From an uncultured delta proteobacterium (GTDB lineage: Bacteria; Desulfobacterota; Zymogenia; Zymogenales; Zymogenaceae): a DNA stretch of 64,000 bases. The stretch lies in NCBI GenBank assembly GCA_963792965.1, contig CAWBYW010000016.1, forward strand, positions 115,925 to 179,924. The letters run 5' to 3'. Numbering within the stretch: the first letter of the stretch is position 1; each line of letters opens with the position of its first letter. Shown here one piece after another: positions 7,163-57,531 of the stretch. Under the pieces are notes generated by a model, which did no database searches, was not told the DNA's origin, and was given only the letters and a program-made list of their open reading frames with translations. Made by a program: the position numbers and the translations under genes.

Positions 7163-7313
7163 TGGTATGACTCCCTCCACTGAGATAGACCGCTGGACCG
7201 GACGGACACAAACGGTCCGTCTGCGGCGCACGGGTGAGTGGCATACGGTCAGCCGGGCCGCATGAGCACACGGCCCATCGCGTCCGCGCGGCGCACCGTG
7301 CCCGAAAGTATCT

Positions 7314-10836: not shown

Positions 10837-13625
10837 CTCTGTTCGCTCACAAAATCGCTTAAGAAAATAACGGTAGTCCATCCTATCGGGGAGCCCGACC
10901 CCATACCCTGTGCAAGATCGCGGACGGTCTGGGCATAGCCGTCAAGAAGAGGGGCCTTCCTGGACGCGGTAATCATTCGAGACAGAAAAGGGGATACCTC
11001 GTCCGGGCGCGCCCCCCGGGGGATCAGCAGATAGGGTGCATCCTTCATGAAGGCCAGGTATTCTATCTGGAAAAACTCCCCGGGAGCGGAGTCTTCGTCG
11101 ATGTCCGATACAACGACGAGGGGTGCCTCCTGCTCCCACCACGCCCGGTCGCCCGGATGCGCGAGGAGGAGCACGGTTGGGGCTCCCACGCCCGTCTCTT
11201 TCGTGTCTGGGTCCGGGAGTCGCCTCACGTCCGTAAAGAGGTCTAATAATCCCTTGTCGACAGGGCCGGCGTCTCCGACGACGGTCACGCTATCCGGCAT
11301 CGTCGGGAGGGCCTGAGGGATCATCGACCGGGGAGAAAGACAGGACGTAAGGAATACGGCGTATTCGGCCGCAAGCGGCACGAACGTCCCGTCCCCGGGA
11401 CTATGCCCGAGGGCGTTGAGCGGAAGTGATGAAAGACGAGGCCCGGGAGATATCCCGAGCGTGGTGACGCCGTCGAGCTCCCCGATCAGAGGGGCAATCA
11501 GTATTGAGTAGAGGTGGTCCGATGCCGCGGCAAATGGGGGAAGCGCGGCCGCCGTCGACCCCTCGGGGGCGGGAGCGGCGACGGGGGGTGTGGAGATTTC
11601 CTTCTTTAGGTCCCGCACAAGCCCCGCGGCTTCCTCCTGTGTTGTCCCGAGTTTTACGACGGATGTCCCCCGTGATGTGACCACGAATGCAAATGCGGCC
11701 TCCCCGTCAAAGTAGTAGTGGACGAAGGCCGCGCCGTTCGGCACGATCCGCGCAAGGTCGCCCGCGTCGGGCGGCCCGATGCCCATGAAGGCGGCAAGCC
11801 GAGGGGACCGCCGCGCGATCGAGGACACGGCGTCGGAAAGCGCCGCGTTTGCCTCATCGCGGCGTCGGATGATGTCCGTGCGCGAGGATTCGGCAAGCTT
11901 GGTGAAGTCACCCGACAAAAAGACCCCTTGGGCCGCGATCGCGCGCATCGCCGCGTCCCGAAAAAGGCCCACGAGCTCCGCGTCTGTTTTCTTCAGGACG
12001 GGTGGAGACTGAAAGATCCCTCGCGCCACCCACGATCCCTCGGACGAAATGAGGGCCTCAAGCCCCTCCCTCTCTTCCCCGAGCTCCGCACAGAGGCCCA
12101 GGAGCTTATTAAGGGCTCCCGCACGCTCCTCTGTTCCGAAGGAAAGGAGCGCTGCTTCCGGCACATCCGTCCTGATGTCCTCCGAGGTTCGGACGCAAGA
12201 GGCCAGCGCGTCGAAGGCCTTCTCTTTTTGACCGAGGGCGATCCTCACTTCGGCCTCGGCTAAAAGCGCCGCGGCGCGCGTGAGCGGGACATCCTCGGAA
12301 AACGCGAGCGTATGGGCCGAAAGGGCGGCCGCCTCGGCCCCCTTGAGATCGCCCATGGCGATGAGAACCCGCGCCGTCTCGCAGTAGACCGCCGTCTCGC
12401 CGAGGGTCCAGCCGAGATCCTTTGCCACCATAAGGGCGTCCTTCAGGAACAGCGAGGCCGCCTTTGAATCGCCGGCCTTGCGGTAGGCCGTCGAGAGCCC
12501 TATGAGGGCGGTTTCTCTGACCACTTCGTCCTCGATTCTTTCCCCGAGGGTCTCGGCGACCTTGTAGGCCGCTATGGCACCGGGGAAGTCCCCCTCGCCG
12601 GCGAGGATCCGGCCGAGCGTCAGATAAGCACGGCCCAGCCGCCCGGCATCGGCCAGTCTCTCAAAGATCGTGATCGCCTCTCTGATCTTCGCCTCTCCCT
12701 GTTTGTTCTCTTGCTGGGCGGCGTCAATCTCGGCGCCCAGCATGAGGACATCGCCGACGTCAGGCGCCGGCCCCGATGCCCCCACCTCTTTGAGAGTCTC
12801 ATCGGCCTGGCGCTTTGCGGCCTCTCGATCACCCGTGAGGAAGAGAAGCCGCGCCTGCGCAAGCCCGGCTTCGGCGACGTACTCGGGCCTGCCGAGGGTG
12901 CGTGATAGCTCTTGGGCCGCGGCCAGGTCGTCCCGCGCGCCTGCCGCGTCGCCAAGGGATATCCGTGCCCTCGCCAGCCCCATCAGGCACTGATAGATCC
13001 CTTCATCGTTTTCCGCCGTCCGAAAGATATTCTCCGCGGAGAGGTACGACTCGATGCCCCGAACGCGATCCAGGAGGATGTCGGAGGCGACCTCCGCCTG
13101 GATGAAGATCGCCTGGGCCTTGGAGACGAGGATCTCCTTTTCCGGGGCGGAGAGCTTGGCCGGCGTGAGGGGTTTTGTCTTGAGGTCGGCGATATTATTG
13201 AGGTAGGCCGAAAGGGTGGCGGCATCTATCGTGACCCTGGCCGTCACCAATACCATATCGGAGGTAGGGAACGGGGTGGAAGAGACGACCTCGGTTTTCT
13301 TGATATATTTCTTGTAGTCGGGGATGACCAGGGCGTCCAGCGCGTCCTGGAGGCGGAAGAATTCATCTTCGCCGAGGGTCTGGAAGATAGACGTGACAAG
13401 CGCCCTTTTTTCGGCGTCATCGACGGCGGTCGGAAGCGGCGGCTCCGCATCCGAAGGTGTCTTCTGAGCGGGCGCGCCCAGGCCGAGGGAAAAAATGGTG
13501 ACCCCGTCTTCGCCTCCGTTGCCGGCGCCGAAGAGCGGATGCGCGCCGAATGAGACGAATAGAAGGATAAGGAGCACGACTATGCGGTACGTAGTATGGA
13601 TAATAGCCCGAGAAAAAAAGGTCAT
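10833..13625 (-). CDS. large TPR-repeat protein with C-terminal CHAT-like domain and N-terminal membrane anchor
   Basis: TPR-like helical repeats in the middle. The C-terminal region (LYSILIAPLIGEL...LSSLPLNAL) resembles a CHAT domain, but the expected catalytic Cys context reads LVVVSD, so it may be inactive. The probable start is the ATG at 13625, preceded by GAGGAT. Confidence 0.5.
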   Translation of the reverse strand: MTFFSRAIIHTTYRIVVLLILLFVSFGAHPLFGAGNGGEDGVTIFSLGLGAPAQKTPSDAEPPLPTAVDDAEKRALVTSIFQTLGEDEFFRLQDALDALVIPDYKKYIKKTEVVSSTPFPTSDMVLVTARVTIDAATLSAYLNNIADLKTKPLTPAKLSAPEKEILVSKAQAIFIQAEVASDILLDRVRGIESYLSAENIFRTAENDEGIYQCLMGLARARISLGDAAGARDDLAAAQELSRTLGRPEYVAEAGLAQARLLFLTGDREAAKRQADETLKEVGASGPAPDVGDVLMLGAEIDAAQQENKQGEAKIREAITIFERLADAGRLGRAYLTLGRILAGEGDFPGAIAAYKVAETLGERIEDEVVRETALIGLSTAYRKAGDSKAASLFLKDALMVAKDLGWTLGETAVYCETARVLIAMGDLKGAEAAALSAHTLAFSEDVPLTRAAALLAEAEVRIALGQKEKAFDALASCVRTSEDIRTDVPEAALLSFGTEERAGALNKLLGLCAELGEEREGLEALISSEGSWVARGIFQSPPVLKKTDAELVGLFRDAAMRAIAAQGVFLSGDFTKLAESSRTDIIRRRDEANAALSDAVSSIARRSPRLAAFMGIGPPDAGDLARIVPNGAAFVHYYFDGEAAFAFVVTSRGTSVVKLGTTQEEAAGLVRDLKKEISTPPVAAPAPEGSTAAALPPFAAASDHLYSILIAPLIGELDGVTTLGISPGPRLSSLPLNALGHSPGDGTFVPLAAEYAVFLTSCLSPRSMIPQALPTMPDSVTVVGDAGPVDKGLLDLFTDVRRLPDPDTKETGVGAPTVLLLAHPGDRAWWEQEAPLVVVSDIDEDSAPGEFFQIEYLAFMKDAPYLLIPRGARPDEVSPFLSRMITASRKAPLLDGYAQTVRDLAQGMGSGSPIGWTTVIFLSDFVSEQR

Positions 13626-13705
13626 CGGATAGATCCTCGCCCCGGCCCGATACGGCCTCAGTTCATCGTCGAACATCACCGATAGATGATCTCGTGTTCC
13701 CCGTG

Positions 13706-14275
13706 CTATAACCCGAGCTCCCCCGCAATCGTCCCCATCGCCTCGATGCTGAGGGTGACGAACTCCTCAAGCGGTATCCCGATCTCCTCACAGAGCCTGA
13801 TCCCCTCGCGGCTGACGGACCTGGCGAAACCCTTCTCTTTCATCCGCTTGACGACGGAGGAGGGTTTCACCTGGGCGATCTTCTTGTCCGGCTGCACGAG
13901 GGCCGTGGCCACAATCAGCCCGGTGATATTTTCCGCGGCGGTGAGGGCGAAATGGAACGTGTCGGTGCGGGAAATCCCAAGGGCCTCGGCGTTGTGGCTC
14001 TTGATCGCCTCGATGATCTCGGGGCTTACCCCCTTTTCGACGAGGATCTTTTCAGTCTCGAGTCCGTGGCGCTCGGGGGTATCCTTGGTCGTCGCGTAGT
14101 CAAGGTCGTGAAGCAGGCCCGCGACTCCCCATACCTCGGGGTCTTTTCCGAACCGCGCCGCAAGCCGCCTCATGATCGCCTCGGTGGCCAGGCTGTGCTT
14201 GATCAGGGCCTGATCCGTGACTTTTTCTTTCACGAGCGCCCACGCCTCGTCTCTTGTTACCGTGCGGCCGCTCAT
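13706..14275 (-). CDS. HD/HDIG domain metal-dependent phosphohydrolase
   Basis: H...HD motif (LLHDLDY), about 190 aa, typical HDIG architecture. Confidence 0.8.
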   Translation of the reverse strand: MSGRTVTRDEAWALVKEKVTDQALIKHSLATEAIMRRLAARFGKDPEVWGVAGLLHDLDYATTKDTPERHGLETEKILVEKGVSPEIIEAIKSHNAEALGISRTDTFHFALTAAENITGLIVATALVQPDKKIAQVKPSSVVKRMKEKGFARSVSREGIRLCEEIGIPLEEFVTLSIEAMGTIAGELGL

Positions 14276-14733
14276 CGATATCGATTCTCCTTTTCCGTTC
14301 TTTTTTGTTTGTCTTCCAGCATCTTTGCCGTACAGTAGGTGTCGGCCAGCTCACAGGCCTTCGTAATGTCGGCATCGGCCTTATCGGCAAGCCCCATCAT
14401 GTTGTAGCAGCCGCCCCGCTGGTAGAGGGCCTCGGCGTCGTTCGGGTAAAAGCCCAATACCATGGAGAAATCATCCGAGGCCTCTTTCCATTTGAAAAGC
14501 TTTTTATAAGAGAGCCCCCGGTTGAAATAGACGGTCGACAGATCGATCCCCTCTGTCGTTGTGCCGGAAGATGCCGCCTCGATTACGCTCGTCCACAGCT
14601 CGATCGCAGTCCCATAGTCGCCCCTTCTGAAGTGCCGCTGGGCATCGTCATTGACATCTTTAACGCTGGCGGCCGCGGCTATCGAGGCCGCCAGCGAGAG
14701 GATCAGAAGAGAAACACATACGCGCTTTTTCAT
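14272..14733 (-). CDS. small secreted TPR-like protein
   Basis: Signal peptide MKKRVCVSLLILSLAASIAAA followed by TPR-like helical pairs. 4-bp overlap with the HD gene. Confidence 0.5.
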   Translation of the reverse strand: MKKRVCVSLLILSLAASIAAAASVKDVNDDAQRHFRRGDYGTAIELWTSVIEAASSGTTTEGIDLSTVYFNRGLSYKKLFKWKEASDDFSMVLGFYPNDAEALYQRGGCYNMMGLADKADADITKACELADTYCTAKMLEDKQKRTEKENRYR

Positions 14734-15026
14734 GCTCTGCACCCGCATCGGTAAGATCGGCCTTCTCCCCGGCAATATCTGGTAGTTATCCACAATAATA
14801 TACACAACATGTGGATAGAATAGCGAAAAACAGGGGAAAATTGTTACTTATCATGATGATACGCTGAAATTGTTTTATGATACTGTATTGTGAGAGTATA
14901 GTCAAGCTTTTCCCTTGACGATGACTCCTGCTTATGATATTTAATTATATTTATACACACGGCACTGTTCGGTCTGACACACGGCGTGCGGTATCTTTTC
15001 GGGCCGACGGCTCGATGGGGTCAACG

Positions 15027-15458
15027 ATGAAACAGCTCCTGCTGGTGGATGACCGCAACAAATATTCGAAGATCATCACGAGCTTCTTCACGAAGCGCGG
15101 CTACCTGGTCGACCGCGCCGTCTCCGCCAGAGAGGGGATCAGACTCCTGGGCGAAAGAGGGCTGGATTACTATTGTGTCGTGGTCACGGACATCACCATG
15201 GAGCATCAGCTGGCCGGCCTGACGGTGATCCTGTATCTACACCGAAAGAGGTTTTCGGGGACGGTTGTCATGGCGAGCACCGGCTTCGACGTATTTTTCG
15301 GGATGTTCTTCTCCAAGCTCTTCATGGGAATTTTCGGCGTGCACTATCTCGTTCCCAAGACCACGGTGTTGAAGCACGATTTTGATTTTTACCCGGCCCG
15401 GCTCGGCTCGCAACCGCAAAAAGAGTTCACCGAGGTTACCGCCGCACTCGGGGCTTGA
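15027..15458 (+). CDS. stand-alone receiver (REC)-like domain protein with C-terminal hydrophobic extension
   Basis: LLLVDD acidic pair, phospho-acceptor context VVVTDITM, conserved T (ASTG) and K (LVPK). Coordinates use the ATG at 15027; an upstream ATG at 15015 (MGSTMKQ...) is also possible. Confidence 0.5.
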   Translation: MKQLLLVDDRNKYSKIITSFFTKRGYLVDRAVSAREGIRLLGERGLDYYCVVVTDITMEHQLAGLTVILYLHRKRFSGTVVMASTGFDVFFGMFFSKLFMGIFGVHYLVPKTTVLKHDFDFYPARLGSQPQKEFTEVTAALGA

Positions 15459-15575
15459 CCGTAGGATCGTAGCTGCGATTGAGCCCTCAGAATCATCACC
15501 ACAGCAAACCTCCTCGTAAGGGGCGGTGAGTGTCGACAAAATAAAGTACATAATCTATTAAGAAAGGAGCATCCT

Positions 15576-16589
15576 ATGAAACGGTTTGTACTTCTTACGT
15601 TAGTGGCGGCCCTGATCGTCCCCCTGGCCTTCGGGATCACCGGCTGCGCGAAGGAAAAGAAACATTACCTCATCGGCATCTCCCAGTTCGTCGAGCACCC
15701 GGCGCTTGATGCCGTTCGCAACGGATTCATCGACTACCTCAAGGAGAACGGCTACGTGGAAGGGGAGAACGTGACGTATGATATTAATCTGGCCCAGGCC
15801 GATTTCGGAACGGCGGCGCAGATCGCGGAGAAGCTTGTCGGGATGAAGCCGGATCTGGTTCTTACCATCGCCACTCCCTCCTCCCAGGCCATGGTCAAGG
15901 CGACCGCGGAAATCCCCATCGTCTTTTCCGCCGTGACCGACCCGGTCGGAGCGGGGTTGGTGAGCTCGCTTTCCGGCGGCGGGAAGAACGTGACCGGGAC
16001 CTCGGACCTCTCCCCCGTAGACAAGCAGCTTGAGCTCATCAAGAAGATCGTACCGAACATCAAGAAGCTCGGCTTTATCTACAACGCCGGCGAGTCCAAC
16101 TCCCTGACTTCTCTCAAGCAGGCCAAGGAAGCGGCCGCCAAGCTCAACATTGAGATCGTCGAGGCCACCGTCACCAACTCAAGCGAGGTCTTGATGGCGG
16201 CTCAATCCCTGGTGGGCAAGGTGGACGCCATTCACGTCCCCACGGACAACACCGTCGTTTCCGCCTTTGAGGCGATCACCAAGGTCTGCATCGACAATAA
16301 GATCCCCCTCTTCGCGGCGGACGTCGATTCGGTCCCGCGGGGCGCCGTCGCGGCCCTCGCGATTGACTACTATCGCCTCGGCCAGCAGACAGGCAGGATG
16401 GCCATCGAAATCCTCAAGGGAAAGAAACCGGGCGACATGCCGGTCGAAACCCTCGAAGATCTGCTGCTTTATGTCAACCTCGATTCCGCCAAGAAGATGG
16501 GCGTGACGATCCCGGCCGACGTGCTTGATAAGGCCGACAAGAAGATCGAAGAAATCTCGGCGCCGACGCCCGCGGAAGAAAAGAAGTAG
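15576..16589 (+). CDS. ABC transporter substrate-binding lipoprotein (ABC_sub_bind / BMP-like family)
   Basis: Lipobox LAFGITGC. Sequence typical of the uncharacterized ABC substrate-binding family that pairs with BPD_transp_2 permeases. Confidence 0.8.
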   Translation: MKRFVLLTLVAALIVPLAFGITGCAKEKKHYLIGISQFVEHPALDAVRNGFIDYLKENGYVEGENVTYDINLAQADFGTAAQIAEKLVGMKPDLVLTIATPSSQAMVKATAEIPIVFSAVTDPVGAGLVSSLSGGGKNVTGTSDLSPVDKQLELIKKIVPNIKKLGFIYNAGESNSLTSLKQAKEAAAKLNIEIVEATVTNSSEVLMAAQSLVGKVDAIHVPTDNTVVSAFEAITKVCIDNKIPLFAADVDSVPRGAVAALAIDYYRLGQQTGRMAIEILKGKKPGDMPVETLEDLLLYVNLDSAKKMGVTIPADVLDKADKKIEEISAPTPAEEKK

Positions 16590-16690
16590 GCGCACGTGCG
16601 CAGACGGATACCGCCGGAAGTCGCCGTCGGCGCTCCGACCGGTCGATACCGGTGCCGAGTCGGGAGTTTTCGAACATCGAAGGTAAAACG

Positions 16691-16731
16691 AGACGGGGTG
16701 GGATATCGATTCTCACCCCGTCTCTTTTTTT
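16691..16731 (+). terminator. Rho-independent terminator after the substrate-binding gene
   Basis: agacggggtg...caccccgtct stem followed by a T8 run. Sits between the binding-protein and permease genes. Confidence 0.8.
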
Positions 16732-16852
16732 GTCACGACGGCGGCGCCGGGCTTTTCCCTTGACCATATAAAGTTATTGTGATATTTAACTACTTTTAAT
16801 AATTGATTTTCGAGCCCGGCCTTTCAAGTACCGTGACCTGGAGGTGGCGCAC

Positions 16853-20117: not shown

Positions 20118-20169
20118 GGCGTCGTTGGGTAGGGCGATGCCCCGGCGGTTTCGGAGCCTCATCAAAGGC

Positions 20170-23100
20170 TTACTTGGCGATGAGCTCGTCCAGCCGCTCG
20201 ATGAGTAATTCGACGCTGAAACGGCTTTTCGACGAACGGGCTTCCCGTAATCTTCAGGAAGGCCTGGGTGTCTTTTCCGAGGACGTCACCGGTGATAAAG
20301 AGAACCCTGTTGGAAAGGCCGGGGTGATATTTCTGAATAAAGGTATAGAGCTCTTTTCCGCCGATACCGGGCATCTTCATGTCCGAGATCACCACGTCAT
20401 ATCGCTTGCCGTTGATAGCCTCGATGGCCTCCTCGCCGCCCGTGCATAGATCCACCCGATGCCCCTCGTCGGCCAACGCTTCAAACAGGAGGTCCCTCAC
20501 GGATTTCTCATCTTCGACCACAAGCACCGACTTTCCGTTTCGCGGTCCGGCCGCCTTTTTCTGCATGGGCCGCTCCGTGCGTTCTTCCTCACTCGTGACG
20601 GGGAGCTCGATGCTAAAGCGTGTCGCCTTCCTTGGGGAGCTTGTCACGTCGATTTTCCCGCCATGCTCACCTATGATGCCGTAGACGATGGCAAGGCCCA
20701 AGCCCGTCCCCTTTCCGACCTCTTTGGTCGTGAAAAACGGATCAAAGATGTAGTTGATGATATCCTTGGGTATGCCCGGCCCGTCGTCCTCAAATTCGAT
20801 CGAGATGGCGCCGTTTTTCAGTACCGAGCGGATCACGAGCGTGCCCCCGCCGGCCGTGACCAGGGCGTCGTGGGCATTGTTGATGAGGTTGATGAAAACC
20901 TGCTGCAGCTGGTAGGGGTCGGCCGAGGTCTTGGGTATATCCTCGGAAAGATCCGTCTGAATCACGACGTTGTCCACCCGCAGCTCATATTCCCTGAGCC
21001 GGTACGATTCCATGATCACGTCGTTGATGGATATCATTTTTCGCTCGGGCTTGTGCTCGCGCGCAAAGGCCAATAGTCCCTGGATGATCTTCGACGAGCG
21101 GAAGGACTCTTTACGGATGATTTCGAGCTTTTCCCGTATGTGGGCCGGTATCTCCTTTCGCATCATCAGATCGGCGTGGCCGATGATGGAGGTCAGGGGG
21201 TTGTTCAGCTCGTGGGCCACCCCGGACAGGATCCCCCCGAGGCTCGAGAGCTTCTCGGCCTGGGCGAGCTGTCGCTCCATTTTCTTTCTCTCGGTGATGT
21301 CCTTGAGGAAGCCCTGGTAGCCGATGATCGCGCCCGACTTGTCCTTCCTGACGACCGCCGTCATCAGGCAGTCGAGCAACTGGCCGTCTTTTCGCGTGAA
21401 CGATATCTCGTGGTCCTTAACGAAACCCCTTTCCGCAAGAAGACGAATAATCCGGTCTCTTTCGTCCGACGGTGAATAGACCTCGGTGAGGTCCAGGCTC
21501 AAGAGCTCTTCCCTCGTGTATCCGGTGAGTTGTTCCGCCGCCCGATTGATGTCGATGATCCGGGCCTCTCTATTCGTCACGACGATGATATCCCGGGAAG
21601 TCTCGAAGATACCGCGGTACCTTTCTTCAGACTCTTTGATTGCCTCTTCGGCCTCTTTTCGCTCGGTGATGTCTCTGATGGTCCCCTGGTAGCCGACGAT
21701 AGCTCCTTTCCTGTCCCTCCTGGCCGCCGCGGTCATGAGGCAGTCCGCATACGTCCCGTCTTTTTTCCGCATAGTCAATTCAAAATCCTTGATAAACCGT
21801 GTCTTTCTATGGTCTCCTTGAATCGATTGCGCTCCGTGAGGATCCTTATAGAAGTAGCTGACGTTTCTGGAGAGGGTCTCCTCCCTCGTGTAGCCGAGGA
21901 TCGTTTCAAACGCCGGATTGACGTCAAAGATAGCTCCTTCTGGCGAGGTAATGAAGACGATATCCTGGGACGTCTCGAAAAAGCCGCGGTATTTCTCCTC
22001 GGACTCTTTGAGGGCCTCCTCGGCCCTTTTGCGCTCCTGTTCGCTCTCAATAGACCGACAGGGCAAATGCGATATCTCCGGCTACTTCCACGAGCAGGGA
22101 TGCTTCCTCATTATCGAAGACGTCGGCCTGGTCCCCATAAACCCCCAGCGCGCCGAAGACCTGTGTACCGACCACAATGGGCAGCGCCATGCATGAGCGG
22201 TAACCCCTTTTCAGCGCCTCCTTCCGCCAGGGCAGGAAGTCCGGATCATGGGCGGTATCATTGGTTATCCACGGGCGCTTCGTTTTGATCGCCGTCCCCA
22301 TCGGGCCCCTTGCCGGTTTTCGTGCTCATCCCAGGTTACGGTGATGTTCTTGAGATATCCGTCCTCAAATCCCCAGTAGGCCGCCGGGATGACTCGTTTG
22401 TGCCCCTCTTCGACCAGGCCGATCCAGACGAAGTGGTAGCCGCTCACCTCGCACAGGATCTCGCATGCTCCCTCAAGGATCGTATCTTTATCCTTTCACC
22501 TTCGCGATCAACTGGTCGATGTTCCTCAGCGACCGGAGGAGCCGGTTGAGGTGGGCGATCCGCTCCTGCGCCCGCTTCCATTCGGTGATGTCCCTCCCGA
22601 GGCCGTGCGCCTCGACGACTTTCCCGTCCTTCCAGATCAGGGTTTCCCTCATCTCCACCGTCCTGATTTCTCCGCCCTTATCAACAATGGAAAGATCGAA
22701 GGGGCCGATATCCTCGCCCTTTCGCTGTCTCTCGAAGAGCTCGGGAATCTTTTTCACTGATTCCGGGGCCAAGAGCTCAATGTAGTTTTTCCTGATCAGC
22801 TCATCCCGGGTATACCCGGAGACCCGCGCGAGGGCCCGGTTGAGATAGAGTATCTTTCCGGTTCCGTCCGTCACGTAGACGATGTCGTCGATGTTCTCCA
22901 CCAGCTCCCGATAGCGCCGTTCCGACTCCCTGAGCGCATCCTCCGCCCTCTTACGCTCGGTGATGTCGCGCCCGATCCCCTGAAATTCCACGATGCGATT
23001 TCCGCTCCAAACCAGTTTTTCCCGGGTCTCGATGGTCTTCAGCGTAACCGTCGGCATCAAAGACATCAAGGCGGAAGATCCCGACATCCTCACCGGCGCG

Positions 23101-24495
23101 CTGGCGCGCTGAAGACGTCGGCGGCGGTCTCCAATGAGCCGGGCGCAAGGAAATCGGCGAAGCTCCGTCCAATCACCTCCTCCCGTCGACGTCCGATAAA
23201 CTCCTCCGCCGCGCTGTTCAGAAAAGTGATTTTCCCCTGCTCGTTGGTAACGTAGACGATATCCGCGATATTCTCGACCAGCTCCCGGTAGCGTTGTTCC
23301 GACTCCCTGAGAGCCAGCTCGGCCTCCTTGCGCCTGCTGATATCCGTTACGATAACCTGAACAGCCGGCTTTCCCCGATACGTGAGAGGTGTCGCAAGGA
23401 CATCGACGGGAACGGCGGTGCCATCCAGCCTGACGTAGACATTCTCCGCCGGGTAGAGCCCTTCCTCTCCGGACAACATCCGCTTAATCCGGTCCTCGGC
23501 ATCTTTCAGATAGTCGGGGTGGATGATCTGCTTAATATCACGGCCGGTTATCTCGTCGGGGGATCCCGCGCCGAGGATCTTTGCCCCCTCCATATTCGTG
23601 AAAACGATCTTCCCCTCGGACTGGACGGCTATACCCACGGGGGCGATCTCAAGGAGTTTACGGTAACGCTCCTCGCTCTCGCGGAGGGCTTCCTCGGCCT
23701 CCCTGCGCTCCGTAGTGTTTCTTCCCACGCCCAGAAAGCCGGAGGGCCGCCCGTCGGCGTCCCTGAGGAGCGTCACGTTGATCTCGCCCCAGAAGGTGGA
23801 ACCGTCCTTCCGACAAAACTCGAGCTCCATCGTTCGGGATATCTTCACGTTCGGGTCGTAAAGCCGCTCAGGCGTCAGGTCTTCCGCCATCGCCCCGGCG
23901 GCGATCCGATACGAATCGGGGGCCATGCTTTTTTCAAGAGGAAGGTCACGGAGCTCCTCGAGGCTGTACCCCCGGTTGAATGCGACCGAAGGATTCGAGT
24001 ACGTCGTGCGAAAGTCCATGTCCATCATCCAGACGGTGTCGTTCATATTCTCGGTGATGATGCGGTAGCGCTCGTCTTTTTCGCGCAGGGCCGCCTCGGC
24101 GCGCTCTTTTTCGATCCGGAGCCTTTTTTGTTCGAGGGCGACGGCGACGGCGGGCCCCAGCCCTTCATATGCTCCTTGATGACGTAGTCGGCCGCGCCCG
24201 CCTTCATGCACTCGACGGCGGTGTCCTCGTTTTGCGATCCGGTCAGGATGATCACGGGCGTTATCGGCGCGCGCTCAAGGGTAAGTTTGAGCGCCGTCAG
24301 CCCGTCAAAGGAGGGGAGCTTGAAGTCCGAGACGATGAGGTCGGGACGGAACGCCTCGAGGGCCGCGAGGAACTCCTCGCGCGTCTCGACCGTCCGGAAG
24401 ACACACTTCTTGCAGCTCTTGCCGATCTCCCGCTCGGCCAATTCCGCGTCCGTCGGGAGGTCTTCGACGATCAGGATGCGCGTGGGCTCATCCAT
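20170..24495 (-). pseudogene. hybrid sensor histidine kinase (REC, 5 or more PAS, GAF, HisKA, HATPase, C-terminal REC; about 1440 aa), broken by at least 7 frameshifts as assembled
   Basis: ORFs 24043-24495 (REC), 23090-24211, 22951-23172, 22488-23093 (PAS), 22265-22447 and 22047-22301 (GAF), 20162-22066 (PAS, AHELNNPL HisKA, HATPase, REC). Each ends in junk while the domain continues in the next ORF's frame, for example ...IAKVK / DKDTILEGACE, ...DIAFALS / SIESEQERK, and a C-terminus ...KPFSVELLIERLDELIAK* in an alternate frame. Breaks are near 24150, 23095, 23040, 22460, 22300, 22055 and 20220. Confidence 0.7.
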
Positions 24496-24543
24496 TGGGT
24501 TTCACCTTCGCTTCATTGATAAGAAGGGATGCCGTCGGCCCGC

Positions 24544-24988
24544 CTAAGAAGGGGGCTGATTCACCAGCAGCCAGTAGAGCCCGAGGTTGCTCATCGCCTG
24601 AAAGAACTGGTCGAAATCGACCGGTTTGACCACGTAGCTGTTGGCGCCGAGGGCGTAGGCCTCCTTGATGTCCGGGTCTTCCCGCGAGGAGCTCACGACG
24701 ACGACGGGGATGCTTTTCGTCCGCTCGATGCCCTTGATCACCCGCAGAACCTCAAGACCGTTCATCTTGGGGAGCTTCAGGTCAAGGAGCACCACCTTGG
24801 GAAGCTTCATCGTCTTTCTTTCCGCGTATTCCCCCTGGGCCAGGAGGATATCCAGCGCCTGCGCCCCGTCCTGCGCAACATAGATCTGGTTTGCCAGATG
24901 GTTTTTCTTGAGTGCCCTGACCGTCAGCTCGGCATCATTGGGATTATCCTCCACCAGGAGGATGTCTAATCGGTTCGATGTTGCTCAT
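24544..24988 (-). CDS. single-domain response regulator (CheY-like receiver), one frameshift near 24973
   Basis: Receiver motifs [28 protein letters not shown]. The true start is MSNIE at the ATG 24988, which overlaps the stop of kinase 2 (ATGA). Reaching the receiver frame needs a 1-bp correction. Confidence 0.7.
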
Positions 24989-27508
24989 GAAGTCCCCCCT
25001 TCATTGAGTAGGGCAAAGTAAAACGCGGCGCCTTTTTCCACTTCTCCTTCGGCCCAGACCCGCCCGCCGTGGCGGTGGATCACCCGCTGGACGATAGCGA
25101 GGCCGACGCCGGTGCCCGGAAATTCCCGCTCGCCGTGGAGCCGCTGAAAAACCCCGAAGAGCTTGTCCGAATAGCGCATGTCAAAGCCGGCGCCGTTGTC
25201 CCTGACGGAGTAGATCGCCTCGCCGTTCTGTATTTCTCCGTTTACCTCGATTACCGCCCGCTCTTTCTTGGACGAAAACTTAACCGCGTTCGATATGAGG
25301 TTCACCCACACCTGCCGAATCATCGTCGGGTCTCCCTCGAAGCGCGGCAATTTCCCCACCCGAAAGTCGATGCGTCCGCGGCCTTCCTCGTTCGTCAGCT
25401 CGAAAAAGACGGAGCGCGCCAGAATCCCCATATCGATCGGGGCGGCCTGCATCTCGACGCGCCCGATGCGCGAGAACGCCAGCAGATCGTCGATGAGCCT
25501 GCCCATTTTGTTCGTGTTATCGCGGATGATCGCGCTCAGGCGCCTTCCCTCCTCGTCCAGAGACGCCTCGTGCTCCTCGAGAAGGACCTTGGTGAACCCG
25601 TCGATGGCGCGCAGCGGGGCGCGCAGGTCGTGCGACACCGAGTAGCTGAAGGCCTCGAGCTCCTTGTTGGAGGCCTCCAGCTGCGCCGTGCGGTCGCGCA
25701 CGCGCTGTTCCAGCTCCTTGTTGAGCGTCTGAATTTCTTCCTCCGCCCGCCTGCGGTCGGTGATATCGAGCGCCGAAGACAGCGCACCCGTCACCTTTCC
25801 GCTTTCGTCTTTGAGCACACGGCACCACCAACCGAGCAGTCGACTTTGGCCGTCACTGCGCCGCTGCCAGCTCTCGACGTAGAAAACGTTTTCAACACCG
25901 TCAAAGAGTGGCTGCACCACGGTCATAGGTTTCCTGCTCACCGACGAAGTAACCGGCCGCTTCTTTCCCGATTACGTCCTCCCCGAAGAACTCGAGGCCC
26001 GCCTGATTGGCCCAGGTATAGACCTTGTTGTTGTCCACCTCCATGATGATGTCGCTAACGGCGTCCAGGATGGCCTCCTGGCGATTAGACAACGCCCGCA
26101 AATTCTCCTCGGCGCGTTTTTTTTCGGTGATGTCTCGTAGGACGGACCGGCTATAGAGGATTTTGCCCTTCGCGTCTCTCACCGCGCTGGTGCTGAGCAT
26201 GACGTCGATCGTCGTCCCGTCCTTTCGCAGTATCTTGAGCTCTTCGCCGTGCACCTCTCCCGTCTTCAGAAAGGTCGGGAACACCACCTTGCCGGGAACG
26301 TTCGGCGCTGTCCGGATGATATATTTCAAAGACGGGGCGGCCGATGATCTCGTCCTTCGTGTACCCCGCTTGCCCTGGCAAACGTCTCGTTGCAGCTTGA
26401 TGATTTTCGCCGTTTTTGCGTCCACCGATACGAACATGTCGGGGGCGTTTTCGTAGAGGTCCTCGTATCGTGCCTCCGACTCCCTGAGCGCCTCTTCTGC
26501 CCGCTTGCGCTCCGTTACGTCCCTCCCGATTCCGTGGACTTCCTTGGCTCTCCCTTGTTCCCAAATGAGCCGCTCTCTTGTTTCGACCGTGTGGATAGCG
26601 CCGCCCTTACCGTGTAGTTTGACTTCAAACGGGCCGACATTTTCCCCGGCGAGTTGTCGTTTATATACACGCGTAATATCCTTATACGAGTCGGTTGTGA
26701 GGAGGCTCTTCGTATTGAGCCTGAGGAACTCTTCCCTCGAATATCCCAGTTTTGACGCGGCGGCGCTGTTGACGAACGTTATGTTTCCCTTATCGTCAAA
26801 GACATAGATAATGTCCTCGATATTTTCTACGATATTGCGGTAGCGCTCTTCGCTTTCCTCGATCCGGCGCAGCATCGGAGACGAGACCCGCAGGAAGAGA
26901 AAGGCGCCGACAAGCGCCAACAGGAGCGCAATGGAACCCGCGGTCAGGCCCGCCCGGACGAAGGGGGCTTTGACCTCCGCAAGGTCGATCTTGGCCACGA
27001 CGCCGAGGCCCAGCGCCTGCACCGGCTCGTAGGCCGCCAGCACCTTCTCCCCCCGGTAGTCGATGCCGACCATCGTCCCGGAAAGCCCCGAGAGGGCGCG
27101 TCGCATTGGCTCGGCCACGGGGGAATCGAGTGGGAGGATCGTCGGCGCCTGGGCCTTCTCGGCGAATCTTCCTGCGAACAGGAAGACCATCGAGTCTCCC
27201 TCGCGACGGGCGACGACGACCTCCCCGCTCACTGTTTCGGGATGATAATGGATGTGAGACTCAAGGAGCTCCCGGAGCTTTGCGTCGTCTATTTTTTTGA
27301 CTCGACTCCCGGCCACTATTCCATTTGCGCGGGTGATCTCCTCAAAGTGCAACGCCTGGCTCCGCGCGATCTCTGACAGGCGCTGCTTCTGCTCCTCGAT
27401 AGCCGCCCGGTAGAGCATGCTGATCGTGACGCCGAGGACGACGAGAATAATCGCGGTCATGATGAGGATGAGGATGGCGATTCTTCTTCCGCTCTCTTCA
27501 CGGTCCAA
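24985..27508 (-). pseudogene. membrane-anchored PAS sensor histidine kinase 2, with at least 4 frameshifts as assembled
   Basis: ORF 25901-27508 has a TM helix, a periplasmic sensor region, a second TM helix and PAS domains. ORF 24985-25941 carries HisKA (SHDLRAPL) and HATPase_c. A PAS domain between 26290 and 26380 switches frame three times (KTAKIIK / CNETFAR / QAGYTKDEIIGRPVFEIYHPDS / KVVFPTFLKTGEV). There is a further break near 25930. Confidence 0.7.
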
Positions 27509-27969
27509 GACCTCGCTGTTTATCTTTTAGAATGCAGAGTGAACACGAATCCGCCGCCCACGTCTTGTCGGGATCTTTGAGAACAAACCAATACGTTAGT
27601 TAGTGCCGTGAATTGAGACTACCCTCCGAGAGCATGCCGTGCCGTCTCCGAGCACGGATTTCACCGCGTAAAGTCAGTTCGACCGATGGCCCGCCGCGAG
27701 AGGTCGCTGTGGAAGTTGAATAGTAAGACGGTACTGATAGTCGCCACGAATGTGAGCTGATGGAGGGAGCGGTAACATACAACGTGCCCCGGTCTCTCTT
27801 GATTAACCAATAACGATTCTTATGATATTATCCGCCGTTTTATTTGATTATGCAAACAGTATTTTGGATATCCTTTCACTATCATATCAGATTAGTATAC
27901 GCATGCCCGTTTTTGCGCTTCATGCTCGGATAAGAAACGGCCATTCATGCGCCTTCCTTCTCTCCCCAA

Positions 27970-33932: not shown

Positions 33933-34580
33933 TCAGGGCAACCGTTCCCCCCGCGTGGACGCCCGGCCCTGCCCCCCGATAACCTTTACCGCCTCCTCAT
34001 AGGCCAGCACATACCCCCACCGATTTTTCTCCCTGTCCGTCCGCTCCGAAAGGAGCGCGTCGATCTCGCCGGTGTTCCGGGTGACGGGCTTGGGTCCCGA
34101 AAGGCCCTTTTTCAACGCGTCGATCTCGCCGGCATAGTAGACCGCGAGTCCCTCCGAAAACCAGAGCGGCACGTGGGTGCCGAAACGAAGCCGGAGAAGC
34201 GCGAGACACACCTCATGGGCGACGGTCGACTTCAACACCCCGCGCTCTTTCAGGACGTTCACCGGCTGCAGGTAGATCGATCCGTCGATCATCGCCGAGG
34301 CCGACCAGAACGGCAGCCTCGTCTGGGCCGTGAAATCTCCGGTCTCCTTGAAGATCACCACGTCGATGGGACGGCCCGCGCCGCTCCCAACCCTCGTTTC
34401 CATCGCGGTGTATGCCGATTCGAGGGCGTCCTTTACCTCCGAGAGCTCGCCGGCCCGAAGGGTCTCGGCGAAATAGATATTGAAATGCCGTGTCTGGGTC
34501 TGGGCAAAGTCAAGGGCGCCTGCCTCTCGGCTGATGACGAGAAGAAGGCACGAGATCAGAAATAGGAACGGTCTTCTCAA
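33933..34580 (-). CDS. secreted hypothetical protein
   Basis: Signal peptide MRRPFLFLISCLLLVISREAGA. No confident family. 4-bp overlap with the PBP gene. Confidence 0.45.
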   Translation of the reverse strand: MRRPFLFLISCLLLVISREAGALDFAQTQTRHFNIYFAETLRAGELSEVKDALESAYTAMETRVGSGAGRPIDVVIFKETGDFTAQTRLPFWSASAMIDGSIYLQPVNVLKERGVLKSTVAHEVCLALLRLRFGTHVPLWFSEGLAVYYAGEIDALKKGLSGPKPVTRNTGEIDALLSERTDREKNRWGYVLAYEEAVKVIGGQGRASTRGERLP

Positions 34581-35605
34581 TCCGTATGCACGCCTCCGAA
34601 ATAGACGCGGAAAACCTCCCGGGCCACCGGCGCGGCATCCTCACCCCCCCGGCCGTGGTAGAGGAAGACGACCACGGCGATCTCGGGGTTCTCGGCGGGG
34701 GCAAAACCCAAGAACCAGGCGTGAGTCGCCCAGCTGGAGCCGAGGAACTCGCCGGTGCCGGTTTTGCCCATAATCTCGTGCCCGTCCGGCGTCCCCTTGA
34801 CGGCGGTTCCGTACGCCGCCGCATCGCGCATTCCCTCGGCGAGGATCGGCGCCGCGCGGGAAACCTCTACCTTCCTGTTGAGTCTCGGCGAAAATGAACC
34901 GATATCGTCTGCGGTGGGGGTCACGCGGGGAACCCAGATACTGCCCCCGTTCACGAGGGCCGAAAGATTCACGATCACCTGAAGGGGCGTCGCCGTGACG
35001 TTGTCGGTGTCTCCGATGACATACTCACGGGCAAACGCCGGCTCGGGGGGGATGAGCCTTCCCGCCTCCTCCTGTGGAAGGTTGACCCCGGTCTTTTCTC
35101 CAAACCCGAGCTCGGAAAGCCCCCGGTAGGTGGTGTCGGCGCCCAGCGTCTCGGCAAGGGAAAGGAAATAGAGATTACACGAGTAGGCGATCCCGCGGAC
35201 AAGGTTGAGATCACCGTGTCCGGGGGGGTACCAGCAATCGTATTTCGTTCCCGATATAACGGCACTCCCGGTACACCTGAAGCGAGCGTCGGGAGAGATA
35301 CGCTTCTCTTCGATCCCTTTCCAGACGCTCACAAGCTTGACGAGCGAGCCGGGGGGAAAGGCCCAGCGTGTCGCCATGTCGGGCCCCACCATCGCTCTGA
35401 TGCGTCCCGTCTTCACGTCCATGACGACGACCGCCCCGGTCCGGCCCGCCAGGGCGTCGGATGCCGCGCTTTCGAGGAGGGCGTCGCCTTTCAACACCTG
35501 TTCCGGGCCCGGCCTGCAACCCGAGGCGAAGAGAAATAAAAGGGCGACCCCCCCGATGAGGGGTCGCCGAAAGAGTAAACGAATCCGCCGCCGGATCCCC
35601 GTCAT
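34577..35605 (-). CDS. penicillin-binding protein, transpeptidase domain only (lipoprotein)
   Basis: SxxK (SLVK), SxN (SCN) and KTG (KTGT) motifs. Lipobox LFASGC. ATGA overlap with the upstream macroglobulin gene. Confidence 0.75.
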   Translation of the reverse strand: MTGIRRRIRLLFRRPLIGGVALLFLFASGCRPGPEQVLKGDALLESAASDALAGRTGAVVVMDVKTGRIRAMVGPDMATRWAFPPGSLVKLVSVWKGIEEKRISPDARFRCTGSAVISGTKYDCWYPPGHGDLNLVRGIAYSCNLYFLSLAETLGADTTYRGLSELGFGEKTGVNLPQEEAGRLIPPEPAFAREYVIGDTDNVTATPLQVIVNLSALVNGGSIWVPRVTPTADDIGSFSPRLNRKVEVSRAAPILAEGMRDAAAYGTAVKGTPDGHEIMGKTGTGEFLGSSWATHAWFLGFAPAENPEIAVVVFLYHGRGGEDAAPVAREVFRVYFGGVHTD

Positions 35606-38600
35606 TTCCCCTCGGTGATGACAAGGCTTGAGCTTCCCGTCCTTCCGAAGCGGTCCGGGAAGTACATCAGGTACGCCTCGGCCGGCATGACACCGTAGGT
35701 CCCCGGGTTTTGGGCGCGGAGGATATACTTGAAGACATAGGTCCCCACGTCGACGTAGTCCATCGATAGAGCGATCCGCTCATCCCGGAATTCCCTTCCG
35801 GCAAACCACCAGTCCGCATCGCCGGTATAGAGATCGTCCCCGGAGATGACATAGTTTTTATCGTCGCTGATGGCCTCATAGCCCGCCGGGTAGTAGTCCT
35901 CCAGCAGGAAGTATTGGGCCTTCTTGTCGGTCGTGACCGAAAGCTCCACGAGGATCTCGTCCCCGCTACTGACCGGGCCGCTGAGCGGCACCTTCGCGTA
36001 GATGAGCTCTCCCTTCTTGGGCACCTTCTTGAGGAGGTAGTACTTTCTGCTCACGGCAAATCCGGCGTTCAGCGGGGCTATCGAGGGGGCCGCGCTGTAG
36101 TGCGTGAAGGTCGAGGAATAGTAGAGGCTACCCGGCCCGTCCTTCTTGATGACGATCGTATTGGGGCCGGTCTTGAGATCCCCTTCCTTGACGGTAATCG
36201 TTCCCCCCTCGGTGAGCATCGTCTCCTTGGTGATGTGGCTCTTCTTGAGCTGTTTGCCGTTGAGGGTAAGCGTCATGGTGTAGTTCGGCTTGATCTCCCC
36301 GGTCCGGGTGATGTAGTCCGTCAGGGCATAGATGATCTTCCCCGTGGCCTTGGTGGAGCGCCAGTAGCTTCCGGTCCGGTTGATGATAAGCCAGCGGATC
36401 GTCTTGGGGATGAGGGGATTATTGACGTCGCGCATGGCCATCACCCGCAAAACGTACGCGGTGGTCTCCAGGGGATCGGCCTCCCAGTCCCACCAATAGA
36501 AGTCCTCTCCGACGTAACCCCAGTGAACATAGCCGTTCTCCTGGATCTTTTCCTTCATGAGCAGGTCATACAGGACGTTGGCCTTCTCCCGGATCCCCTC
36601 GTTCTCGTAGGCCAACAGCAGCATCGCCTGAGAAATGGGGGTGAGCTTGTCGCGCTTCTCGAACATCTCGTCGAGCCACGCGGTCTTGAGCTTGTCCGTG
36701 TAGGACAAGACGTAGAGGGCGTAGACCTTGACGGAGTCCTGATCGATCTTGCTCAGCTGAGAGATGAGGGACGCGGTGCCGCGCTTGATGACGCCCTCGT
36801 CCACGGTGATGGGAATGCCTGCCTCGGGAAGGAGGCGTTTCGCTTCGAGGAGCCCGTACAACACGTAGGCGGTCATGTAGGGATCGGTCTCGTCGAACTC
36901 GTACCACCCCCAGCCGTTATCGTCGTGCTGCCGTTTGTAGAGCACCATGAGCCCGCTCTTGATGTAGGCGGGGAGGTCCTTCTCTACGCTCTTATCGGAA
37001 AGGTCAAGCTTCTTTAATACCGACGCGACCATGACTGATGGCAAGAACCTTGCCATTACCTGCTCGTTTCACCCATAGGGGTAGCCGACGAGGAATGGTA
37101 TAGCGGCAAGCATTGTGTTGACGAGCGATGGACTGGTGGTAATGGTGAGCTCAGCAGCGTTCTTTATCGTGTTGGCGGGCTTGTTGACCGTCACCGTGAG
37201 CGTCCCGGAGTCCTTGATGATCTCTCCCATATCGTTCTTTGTCTCTTTGATGCCGAGCGGGAGGATCGGCACCTTTATCTCCATTCCGTCGGAGACCTCG
37301 TTGGTCATCGCCTTTGCCGTGAGAACGGCACTTCCCACGAGGTCCGCCCTGACGTGCCAGTCGACGCGCTTCTCTCCGTTTTTCGGGACGATTGCATCGA
37401 CCGGAACGCCGGAAGCGAGCGTCAATCCCTTTGCGTCGAACGTGAAGTGCACCTTCTTGTCGGTCGACAGGTAATTATGGGCGATGGTGGAGATTACGAG
37501 GTCGTCCCCCTGGCGCAGAAATCGCGGCGCCTCTATGCGGACGAGTAAGTCCTTGCGCTCGATGACCCGGTAGGTAGTCTCCCCCATGCTGTCGCCCGTG
37601 GTCACCCCCCGGACCGTCGCACGCCAACGCGTCAGGTTGTCCGGGAAGGTGACGGTGACCGTGGCCATACCCTTTGCGTTGGTCGTGATCGTGGGCGACC
37701 AGTACATCGTGTCCTTGAAGTCCTTTCGGATCAGCGGTTGAACGAGCGTGTCTCCCTTGAAGTCGGCAAGCTTCGTCTCTTTTTCCGGAAGTCCCGCCAG
37801 GAGTCCTTTCCGGTGAGAGTATCCGTAAAAGCGGAAGTAGAGGGATGACGACGTGTCCACGGAATGATAGCGCAGCGAGTAGAAATACTTCTGGATTTCG
37901 TCGACAAGCTCCGGTGAGATGGCGTAGATGGCGTCGTCCACGACGCCGAGCGACACCTCTGCCGACACGGGTTTGCCTGTGCTGTCCGTCGTCTTTATCG
38001 TAAAGGTGCCCTTTTCTTGCGGCTCGTACGTCGCCTTATTGGAGGTCACCTCGACGTTGATGAACTTTTCGGTCGGTGGGATGATGATGTTCTTGCTGTC
38101 CGAATAGAGCTCATCGTTGAAGATCGCGGCAACCGAGAGGTAGATGTTGGGGGTGTATCTCTCCTTTATGGGGAGATCCAGCATCGCCGTGCCACCCGTG
38201 GCTTTGATGACTCGGCTATCAAGGATCGAGTCTCCCTCGGTGGTAATCAACAGATAGGTATCCTTCACCGGCGCGGCGATCAGGATGTGGGCGGTATCGC
38301 CCACCGCGTAGGTATCCTTGTCGGGGATAATCGTGACGCCGCCCTCCGACGTCCCGCCGTAGGCATACCCCTCCGTAAAGGAATACGATGAGTCCTTGGC
38401 CGTGGTGGAGTTGCCCGCGTTATCGAAGACCGTGGCGATGAAATTGACGTCGCCCACGTTTTTCACCGTATATTCGATGACGGCGTCCCCACCGGAGTTC
38501 GTCCTTCCCGAAAGGGTGGCCGAGCTCGTGACCTTGCCCCCCTGCCAGTCGGTCTCCGTGACGATGAGCGTCACCGGCACATTCGCCACACCCTTGTTGT

Positions 38601-40242: not shown

Positions 40243-40485
40243 AGTTTCCCTCAAAGAATGGAGTATATCGTTGTTTGGTCTGTCACCGTGAGAGTGCGCG
40301 GCGACCGCGGCAATCCCCGGCTGTCGTTACCGATACGGAGGTAATAAGGATCCTTCCTCGAGAATCAGGGCTCGCCTCGTTGTGCCACATCGCCTGGCCT
40401 CCCACGATTCGGGCAGGAACGTTCCCCTGCAATGACCGAGAAGAGCTCCCACGATACTTTGGACCTCAAAAGCACCTATAAAGCT

Positions 40486-45033: not shown

Positions 45034-45072
45034 ACTCCTCCTCCCGTGGTAGTCAGCATGATCTATCCTTAT

Positions 45073-57072: not shown

Positions 57073-57135
57073 TGTAGTACGAGCGAGGACTTCTGTACGT
57101 GATTCCTCAATAGACCTTTAAGCGTAGAGCAAAGA

Positions 57136-57531
57136 ATGATAGTCTTAAGAGCCATTGCTATTTGGGTCGTTGTGATCTTCGCCGAGGTCCTTCACGGCGT
57201 CTGCGCGAACGCTATTTCTTGTGCCGTACGTGGGTGATTTCAGGGCGCGCCAGATCGGCGTATTCACGGGGTCCGTCATAATTTTTGCTATTGCTCTTAT
57301 ATCCGTGCGATGGATCAGCGCGTCCCGTGCCGCAGAATTGCTGGCGGTCGGATTTCTATGGCTTGGCCTGATGCTTGCCTTTGAGTTTCTCTTCGGACAT
57401 TTCGTCTTAGGCTATTAGCTGGCAGCGGCTCGCCGCAGACTACAACCTGACGAAGGGCGGCCTCATGTCGATCGGTATGCTGGTGCTGACGCTATCGCCC
57501 TTGATAGCCGGAAAGGTGCGGGGTCTGGTTT
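57136..57531 (+). pseudogene. small membrane protein split over three frames
   Basis: Three consecutive short ORFs with hydrophobic helices (MIVLRAIAIWVVVIFAEVL..., ...IGVFTGSVIIFAIALISV..., ...GGLMSIGMLVLTLSPLIAGKVRGLV*). They are joined by +1 shifts near 57225 and 57418. Confidence 0.3.

Follow-up and report, generated by a model that had tools for sequence, protein, structure and literature searches.

Genes broken by many frameshifts are familiar from genomes under reductive evolution (e.g., Mycobacterium leprae and recent symbionts), in which they are accompanied by nonsense codons, larger deletions, and relaxed constraint. Frame switching is also known from the phase-variable loci of Neisseria, Haemophilus, and Campylobacter, in which each gene has a single long tract, in most cases close to its 5' end. 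Residual indel errors in long-read assemblies are a third setting. The long-read metagenome-assembled genomes (MAGs) of the Microflora Danica set derive from Nanopore reads that were assembled with Flye and given one Medaka round, with no short-read polishing mentioned in the available part of the description (PMC12313526), and work from the same laboratory reports that R10.4 chemistry resolves homopolymers to approximately 10 bases and that bins below approximately 40-fold coverage still need polishing (PMC9262707; Sereika et al. 2022). Here, we analyzed a stretch of 64,000 nucleotides (the window) from contig CAWBYW010000016.1 of an uncultured delta proteobacterium of the Zymogenaceae (assembly GCA_963792965.1, contig positions 115,925 to 179,924), for which an initial annotation had reported frameshifts in about 15 genes, concentrated in two sensor kinases. 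The frame breaks are very probably residual single-base consensus errors in a long-read metagenome-assembled contig, most probably a Nanopore-only one made with metaFlye plus Medaka. The broken genes are almost certainly intact in the organism, and the frameshift finding as originally given is not a biological feature.

The minus strand of the window between 20165 and 27526 contains three genes: a sensor kinase (K2), a single-domain receiver, and a hybrid kinase (HK1). K2 (24988 to 27484, minus strand) has a membrane N terminus followed by three PAS domains, HisKA, and HATPase, as assigned by Pfam and by alignment to the orthologues in metagenome contigs L003 and L002. The receiver gene (24547 to 24984, minus strand; Pfam Response_reg) is intact and encodes 146 amino acids. 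HK1 (20165 to 24495, minus strand) comprises REC, four PAS, GAF, two PAS, HisKA, HATPase, and REC domains according to Pfam and orthologue alignment, and these are spread over at least eight frame segments. If the window sequence is read without correction, K2 yields two long open reading frames (ORFs) and HK1 yields at least six; the initial annotation had warned that ORF-based annotation would fragment these genes.

We aligned the orthologues P0007, P0006, P0010, and P0004 to the window with a self-written frameshift-aware protein-to-DNA aligner that allows skips of 1 and 2 nucleotides. Against these intact orthologues, HK1 shows eight certain and two probable single-base frameshifts, all placed on the minus strand. 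The four orthologues concur on the certain breaks. The first (break A, 24161 to 24163) lacks one base in AAG-GG-CTG, between the receiver domain and PAS1. The other certain breaks are each one extra base: break B (23106 to 23110) in TTCAGCGCGCC, without any homopolymer; break C (23046 to 23047) in GACGG[TT]ACG; break D (22494 to 22497) in GT[GAAA]GG; breaks E1 (22324 to 22325) in GA[GC]ACG and E2 (22310 to 22312) in GG[CAA]GG; break F (22054 to 22056) in TC[GGT]CT at the end of the GAF domain; and break G (20214 to 20216) in CA[GCG]TC, 12 codons ahead of the true stop. The region from 22311 to 22324 is best read as two extra bases because removal of both gives TKTG, compared with TPTG in the orthologues, and correction of E1 and E2 brings the GAF domain to full length. 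The remaining pair consists of an extra base at 21834 to 21839 (break H), compensated approximately 40 nucleotides downstream by a missing base in GGTTT at 21794 to 21798 (break I). It is graded probable because it is supported by one orthologue (P0007) only and the corrected PAS domain gains just 7 bits.

K2 carries four single-base frameshifts, located by alignment to the L003 and L002 orthologues together with three-frame reading. Each is one extra base on the minus strand: at about 26395 (26395 to 26396) in AA[GC]TGC, again outside any homopolymer; at about 26366 (26364 to 26367), probably in GGGG; at about 26294 (26292 to 26296) in CCCGG; and at about 25924 (25922 to 25925) in TA[TGAC]C, where the orthologue reads ...TY-TAVQPLF. 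The first three lie inside approximately 105 bp, and their correction raises the PAS_9 match of PAS2 from 31 bits over half of the domain to 68 bits over the full domain. The kinase break positions are good to a few nucleotides rather than exact because a near-identical copy was not found. The initial annotation had counted at least seven breaks in the hybrid kinase and at least four in K2, three of them within 90 bp, and both counts are reproduced by the orthologue alignments.

Ten single-base edits turn HK1 into one ORF of 1439 codons, and four edits restore K2. The corrected HK1 reading has no stop in 1435 codons, and its shifted segments share 39 to 81% identity with P0007, except for the 19-amino-acid segment between the probable pair (26%). 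A rough splice of the HK1 fragments gives 1440 amino acids and, over 99% of its own length, matches orthologues of 1442 amino acids. The orthologues themselves are unbroken: the K2, receiver, and HK1 genes are each a single intact ORF in both L002 (1132, 147, and 1442 amino acids) and L003 (844, 147, and 1315 amino acids), and HK1 has no frameshift in L002, L003, or L004. True inactivation, by which the kinases, selA, and the other genes would be pseudogenes in this strain, could draw on the presence of the breaks in the deposited sequence and on the fact that sensor kinases are often dispensable. It is nevertheless highly improbable, as no nonsense codon, no indel longer than one base, and no segment with lost conservation accompanies the breaks, and 14 hits in two adjacent genes without other decay are unlike the ageing of a pseudogene.

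A second cause had been sought in collapsed or chimeric assembly of near-identical repeats inside the kinases and the TPR gene. The kinases do hold six to seven PAS modules at a spacing of approximately 375 nucleotides and with similar linkers; however, the DNA identity between modules is only 60 to 78%, which does not agree with the description as near-identical. In addition, the corrected HK1 is colinear with its orthologues and equal to them in length (1439 versus 1442 amino acids), and the repeat-free selA, APH-type kinase, and MEMO1 genes carry the same errors, leaving repeat misassembly with next to no probability as an explanation.

The gene order cyclase, rsmE, RDD, kinase, receiver, hybrid kinase, radA, and ABC transporter is common to L002 and L003, and the synteny of the window with the orthologue contigs spans the cyclase to the CHAT-like gene. 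Receiver orthologues of 147 amino acids occupy the same place in L002, L003, and L022. In these three contigs, an enoyl-CoA hydratase gene sits between the RDD gene and K2; at the corresponding place in the window (27527 to 27969, approximately 440 bp of non-coding DNA), tblastn for this gene found no remnant. The K2 orthologues differ in size (844, 970, and 1132 amino acids), with PAS and GAF modules exchanged and the N-terminal and kinase parts colinear (window 24988 to 27484 compared with L002 3763 to 7161, L003 4978 to 7512, and L022 3997 to 6909), and the K2 sensor region thus appears to evolve through module swapping.

The whole window was examined by a codon-usage Viterbi parse, which is free of homology. 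It reproduced the counts of the initial annotation for the other genes, with six breaks in selA; two each in the TPR gene, the APH-type kinase, and MEMO1; and one each in MtaD, PMT, and EcfA. Two to three further events fall in the stretch of the lipoprotein and the DUF2138-like gene. The parse found no frameshift in the macroglobulin, the CHAT-like gene, the cyclase, radA, or the ABC genes, all of which had been called free of breaks before. A small membrane protein at about 57130 to 57500 (plus strand), to which two breaks had been assigned, does seem to switch frame twice, but the parse missed both changes. Viterbi events at 2213, 3987, 10907, 14307, 17766, 24967, 24996, 28633, 29360, and 35646 were taken as gene boundaries and left uncounted, and those at 41542, 43308, 44784, 60020, 61202, and 63301 were also left out of the counts. 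The window total is approximately 32 to 34 breaks, of which approximately 23 are +1 insertions and approximately 9 are deletions. Every event is 1 nucleotide long according to the frameshift-aware alignments and a DNA alignment to the IMG contig L025, consistent with the earlier description of the breaks as single-base gains and losses.

L025, which is 86 to 91% identical to the window, carries an intact selA, and all gaps in its alignment are due to additional bases on the window side. The selA gene (45053 to 46461, minus strand) contains six +1 insertions, five of which are placed exactly (46246, 45858, 45825, 45609, and 45540), with the sixth at about 45196. The five placed against L025 are an A in GTC[A]GCT, a T in GC[T]TTCG, a G or A in CCA[G]ACG, a T in a T4 run, and an A or C in GG[AC]CGC. 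Outside the broken genes, the Logan contig L001 (run ERR11596056) is 99.85% identical to the frameshift-free window segment from 10948 to 16740, with eight substitutions and one indel, the latter an extra base in the window. This sole indel in 5.8 kb is an intergenic T at 16704 on the plus strand (GGGA[T]ATC). The MtaD break is of the opposite kind: alignment to the 91%-identical protein P0126 indicates one missing G at 2757 to 2762 (minus strand), where the window has G6 and G7 is needed, and this is the clearest homopolymer deletion. Next to this MtaD-like amidohydrolase gene (2672 to 3985), a 765-amino-acid ORF at 4974 to 7271 (minus strand) fuses purine/uridine phosphorylase-family and amidohydrolase domains.

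The initial annotation placed all breaks at G/C homopolymers and preferred technical homopolymer error over decay. Insertions lie within 6 nucleotides of a G/C run of at least 3 in 10 of 23 cases, compared with a background of 45%, and none of the 23 is near a run of at least 5. The window has 51 G/C runs of at least 6, two of which coincide with an event and 49 of which are error-free. Deletions behave differently, with 4 of 9 within 6 nucleotides of a G/C run of at least 4 versus a background of 17% (p ~0.05), and those of MEMO1 and HK1 (break A) adjoin G/C runs. The +1 insertions are therefore not enriched at G/C homopolymers, and only some of the deletions fit homopolymer undercall. A pure homopolymer-length error at G/C runs, of the 454, Ion Torrent, or older nanopore type, would account for the missing G of MtaD and for the deletions just named, but not for the 23 insertions or the many clean long runs, and the selA insertions with exact positions consist of A, T, or bases that do not duplicate a neighbor; as a general explanation it is very unlikely. 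The technical half of the earlier claim (a low-coverage or strain-mixed MAG consensus) is supported by the intact orthologues, by the conserved shifted segments with their stop-free corrected reading, and by the sister assemblies described below, whereas its homopolymer mechanism finds no support in most events. The same figures bear on programmed frameshifting or phase variation. Nothing speaks for either beyond the presence of frameshifts, whereas a gene has up to 10 scattered shifts, its orthologues read straight through in frame, and most sites are outside long repeat tracts, with no insertion near a G/C run of at least 5, so that both have a vanishingly small probability here.

Clustering was assessed with 32 events over 58.8 kb of coding sequence. 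The density is indeed very uneven, as had been noted: the gene-level dispersion test gives p ~0.0009, and the two kinases, with 11.6% of the coding length, hold 14 of the 32 events (p ~5e-6). The 23 insertions are over-dispersed (p ~3e-4), and the 9 deletions are not (p = 0.48); clustering comes from insertions alone. The three hottest genes have 18 insertions and 2 deletions, versus 5 and 7 elsewhere (Fisher p = 0.006, a value to be read in light of the insertion/deletion split having been noticed post hoc). The events form two zones, one at approximately 20.2 to 26.4 kb containing the two kinases and the other at approximately 42 to 51.6 kb containing the DUF2138-like gene, the lipoprotein, EcfA, selA, the APH-type kinase, and MEMO1. 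Only one event is found in the 15 kb between the two zones, and therefore the clustering is regional and not tied to the kinase genes as such.

The sister assemblies L022, L023, and L024 contain the same locus, have Flye-style "contig_N" names, and belong to adjacent ENA analyses; L022 is contig_360 of the Microflora Danica MAG MFD03899.bin.1.137. Alignment of HK1 gave 33 events in L024, 7 in L022, and 6 in L023, with at least one artefact in each of the latter two; events of L022 and L023 near protein positions 702 to 756 and 895 to 925 were discarded as alignment artefacts of a domain-architecture difference. Fragmentation extends nearly throughout L024, is moderate in L023, and affects HK1 only in L022, and many other genes of L023 and L024 are also split. 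At most of the isolated 1-nucleotide coding gaps between L022 and L023, the more fragmented assembly has an additional base outside any homopolymer, as in the window. HK1 is thus an error hot spot in a second assembly too: at 7396 to 11721 of L022, an otherwise clean contig of 765 kb, the HK1 orthologue is split into three gene calls, and approximately 16 kb of neighboring genes have orthologue-like lengths. That the sister assemblies show the same signature in proportion to their overall fragmentation argues further against true inactivation. The behavior reported for R10.4 chemistry (PMC9262707) fits intact long homopolymers alongside residual non-homopolymer errors.

Systematic errors of basecalling or polishing tied to sequence context, such as a DNA-methylation motif, would likewise be technical but deterministic. 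An extra base that turns the expected AATC into A[T]ATC occurs in three independent assemblies (window 16704, L022 at about 10752, and L023 at about 6132). In L022 and L023, which are 92.6% identical, the insertion is in the same orthologous HK1 codon, and three other assemblies are in frame there; this recurrence may reflect a systematic error that the sequencing or polishing pipeline makes in a particular context. A k-mer search over 24 insertion sites also found GCAAG/CTTGC within 7 nucleotides of 6 of them, versus a background of 3.9% (uncorrected p = 2.6e-4). However, none of the approximately 2,700 k-mers tested, of which GCAAG was the best, survives multiple-test correction, and most GCAAG sites in the window have no error. 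The insertion contexts are otherwise heterogeneous, and a motif alone would not account for two dense zones with clean genes between them. Context-bound error is for these reasons an unlikely general cause, though the one to which we give the most weight after residual consensus error.

The residual errors fall into two classes. One comprises a few 1-base deletions, evenly spread and in part located in G/C runs, corresponding to classical homopolymer undercall. The other comprises the more numerous 1-base insertions at ordinary non-homopolymer positions, crowded in the two zones. In these zones, polishing probably had poorer read support, due to either lower effective coverage or co-existing strains that differ there, and if the reads at a site were divided among two alleles, both bases may have been retained side by side in the consensus. 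Such a tandem-base form can be seen at several insertion sites (e.g., in selA, TC[A][G] and GG[A][C] with the doubled base at the third position of a codon), but it is not diagnostic, as any insertion can be written in this way. The window itself shows which classes of error are present, in which direction they go, and how they cluster; local read support is the reason we suggest for the clustering.

Several points weigh against this account. It is built on assembled sequences and not on reads, and the origin of the window in the Microflora Danica set is deduced in part from its presence in NCBI and ENA. The kinase breaks were judged against orthologues of 50 to 62% identity; a metagenome scan found no near-identical independent copy of the kinase region (none above 60% identity), and a protein search with the GAF region returned only the fragment of the window itself and orthologues with no more than 68% identity. 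As a housekeeping gene, selA is no obvious candidate for high strain variation, yet it has six insertions. If single-nucleotide polymorphisms had simply been merged, the base pairs at insertion sites should mostly be transitions, which they are not. Finally, the +1 site common to L022 and L023 is more in keeping with a systematic error in a specific context than with random noise at low coverage.

The initial annotation also stated that no gene of the window carries an internal stop codon. This does not apply to the alpha-2-macroglobulin gene (35602-40242, minus strand; Pfam MG2, bMG3, bMG5, bait-region, A2M, TED, and bMG10), which has an in-frame TGA at 37069 to 37071; no other in-frame stop was found within the coding regions of the window. 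The ORFs at 37069-40254 and 35602-37056 are in one frame, with the TGA between them, and the codon occupies the position of the thioester cysteine (...LVGYPYG-TGA-NEQVMARF...). The x of YPYGxNEQ, at the start of the TED domain, aligns with the Cys of GCGEQ in TEP1 (2pn5), and structure matches also include Salmonella A2M (4u48), E. coli YfhM (4ziu), CD109, and human A2M. A hairpin resembling a selenocysteine insertion sequence (SECIS), AUGGCAAG-GUU-CUUGCCAU, is located 12 nucleotides past the TGA (37038 to 37056, minus strand), with a perfect 8-bp stem, a GUU loop, a folding energy of -17.6 kcal/mol, and a z score of -2.05. The TGA is neither a frameshift nor a sign of decay but a probable selenocysteine (Sec) codon.

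Among species-representative genomes, a scan identified seven relatives with 65 to 83% identity, all MAGs of Ca. Zymogenaceae or "uncultured delta proteobacterium". Six of them cover the site: TGA is present in five (L026, L028, L029, L030, and L032) and TGT, encoding Cys, in one (L027, Zod_maxbin.0311); two of the five TGA-form relatives are contigs named in the NODE style of SPAdes. From the TGA through the following 32 nucleotides, the window and the five TGA-form relatives are identical, and all 10 third codon positions after the TGA are fixed, compared with 2 to 3 of 10 in flanking windows whose encoded peptide is just as conserved. In the Cys form, nine changes within this stretch abolish the stem. 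The hairpin shows no covariation because the element never varies. The ORF is conserved on either side of the codon: tblastn matches span residues 1 to 500 across the TGA, and the protein match runs 240 residues past it in all five relatives with TGA as well as in the Cys form. Six further ENA/IMG metagenome protein clusters end exactly at ...GYPYG, and the contig of one of them (L033) has the same TGA and hairpin. In L032, the macroglobulin copy of MFD03899, a +1 insertion of its own is found approximately 60 nucleotides downstream of the TGA (CTTGAAG versus CTGAAG in relatives), a further instance of the insertion-type error.

The TGA with its hairpin corresponds to the standard comparative signature of a bacterial selenoprotein and constitutes strong evidence for recoding, which is supported because close relatives form a Sec/Cys pair, the hairpin is invariant in six genomes, and the contigs come from several sources and were assembled independently. 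An Rfam search of the window returned no SECIS family and nothing else, and ARAGORN found no tRNA gene in it. selA is present in the window at 45 to 46.5 kb, 8 kb from the TGA, and a dead selA would conflict with a conserved Sec codon and SECIS element in the same window, another point against true inactivation. On this comparative basis, the TGA quite probably encodes selenocysteine in place of the thioester Cys (YPYG-U-NEQ), which would give a clade related to Ca. Zymogenia a macroglobulin with an internal selenoester, a covalent trap of higher reactivity in which Sec has no redox role. A selenoester between Sec and glutamine, and its function, would follow from the thioester chemistry of the family. 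A penicillin-binding-protein transpeptidase gene (34577 to 35605, minus strand; 342 amino acids, transpeptidase domain alone) overlaps the end of the macroglobulin gene by 4 nucleotides. Full-text searches covering a 2026 review of prokaryotic selenoproteomes, the deep-Sep paper and its supplements, and the BSepDB paper returned no selenocysteine-containing macroglobulin or thioester protein, and the Sec macroglobulin is probably a selenoprotein that is, as far as these searches show, undescribed.

ORF-based annotation of the contig will misreport approximately a dozen genes as fragments or pseudogenes, including the two sensor kinases and selA. Since insertions at non-homopolymer positions make up the majority of the errors, corrections designed for homopolymers would leave most of them in place. 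The errors are regionally clustered, which suggests that their density in long-read MAGs follows the local level of read support; this could help to flag unreliable stretches. Genes containing TGA, such as that of the Sec macroglobulin, are routinely misannotated as two ORFs. If the reading is true, Sec at the macroglobulin thioester site would define a new selenoprotein family and a rare use of Sec for acyl transfer rather than redox chemistry.

In comparison with known systems, the window shares with genomes of reductive evolution the frameshifts in many genes but has no nonsense codons within the broken genes, larger deletions, or relaxed constraint. It shares 1-base frame switching with phase-variable loci, whereas the sites are scattered, up to 10 per gene, and there are no tracts. 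The closest likeness is to the indel errors of Nanopore-only genomes and MAGs (the truncated-protein problem addressed by IDEEL; PMC9262707), in which single-base indels similarly split gene calls, severity varies by assembly, and differently sequenced relatives are intact. Unlike the textbook Nanopore case of long-homopolymer deletions along the genome, the errors here are mostly +1 events outside homopolymers and are regionally clustered.

The macroglobulin shares its domain architecture and motif position with the CxEQ alpha-2-macroglobulins of E. coli (YfhM/ECAM, 4ziu) and Salmonella (A2M, 4u48) and with eukaryotic TEP1 (2pn5), CD109, and human A2M. It differs from these thioester proteins in that its Cys codon is a TGA with a SECIS-like hairpin, which would imply a selenoester instead of a thioester. 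Pairing of A2M and PBP1C genes is known, and the penicillin-binding-protein gene that follows the macroglobulin gene in the window recalls this arrangement. Bacterial families with Sec/Cys homologue pairs are also known (e.g., formate dehydrogenase); as in these, a UGA in the window aligns with Cys in a homologue, a hairpin with a G in its loop follows approximately 12 nucleotides downstream, and selA is nearby. To our knowledge, the known bacterial selenoproteins are overwhelmingly redox enzymes, whereas Sec in the macroglobulin would serve as an acyl-transfer warhead for covalent trapping.

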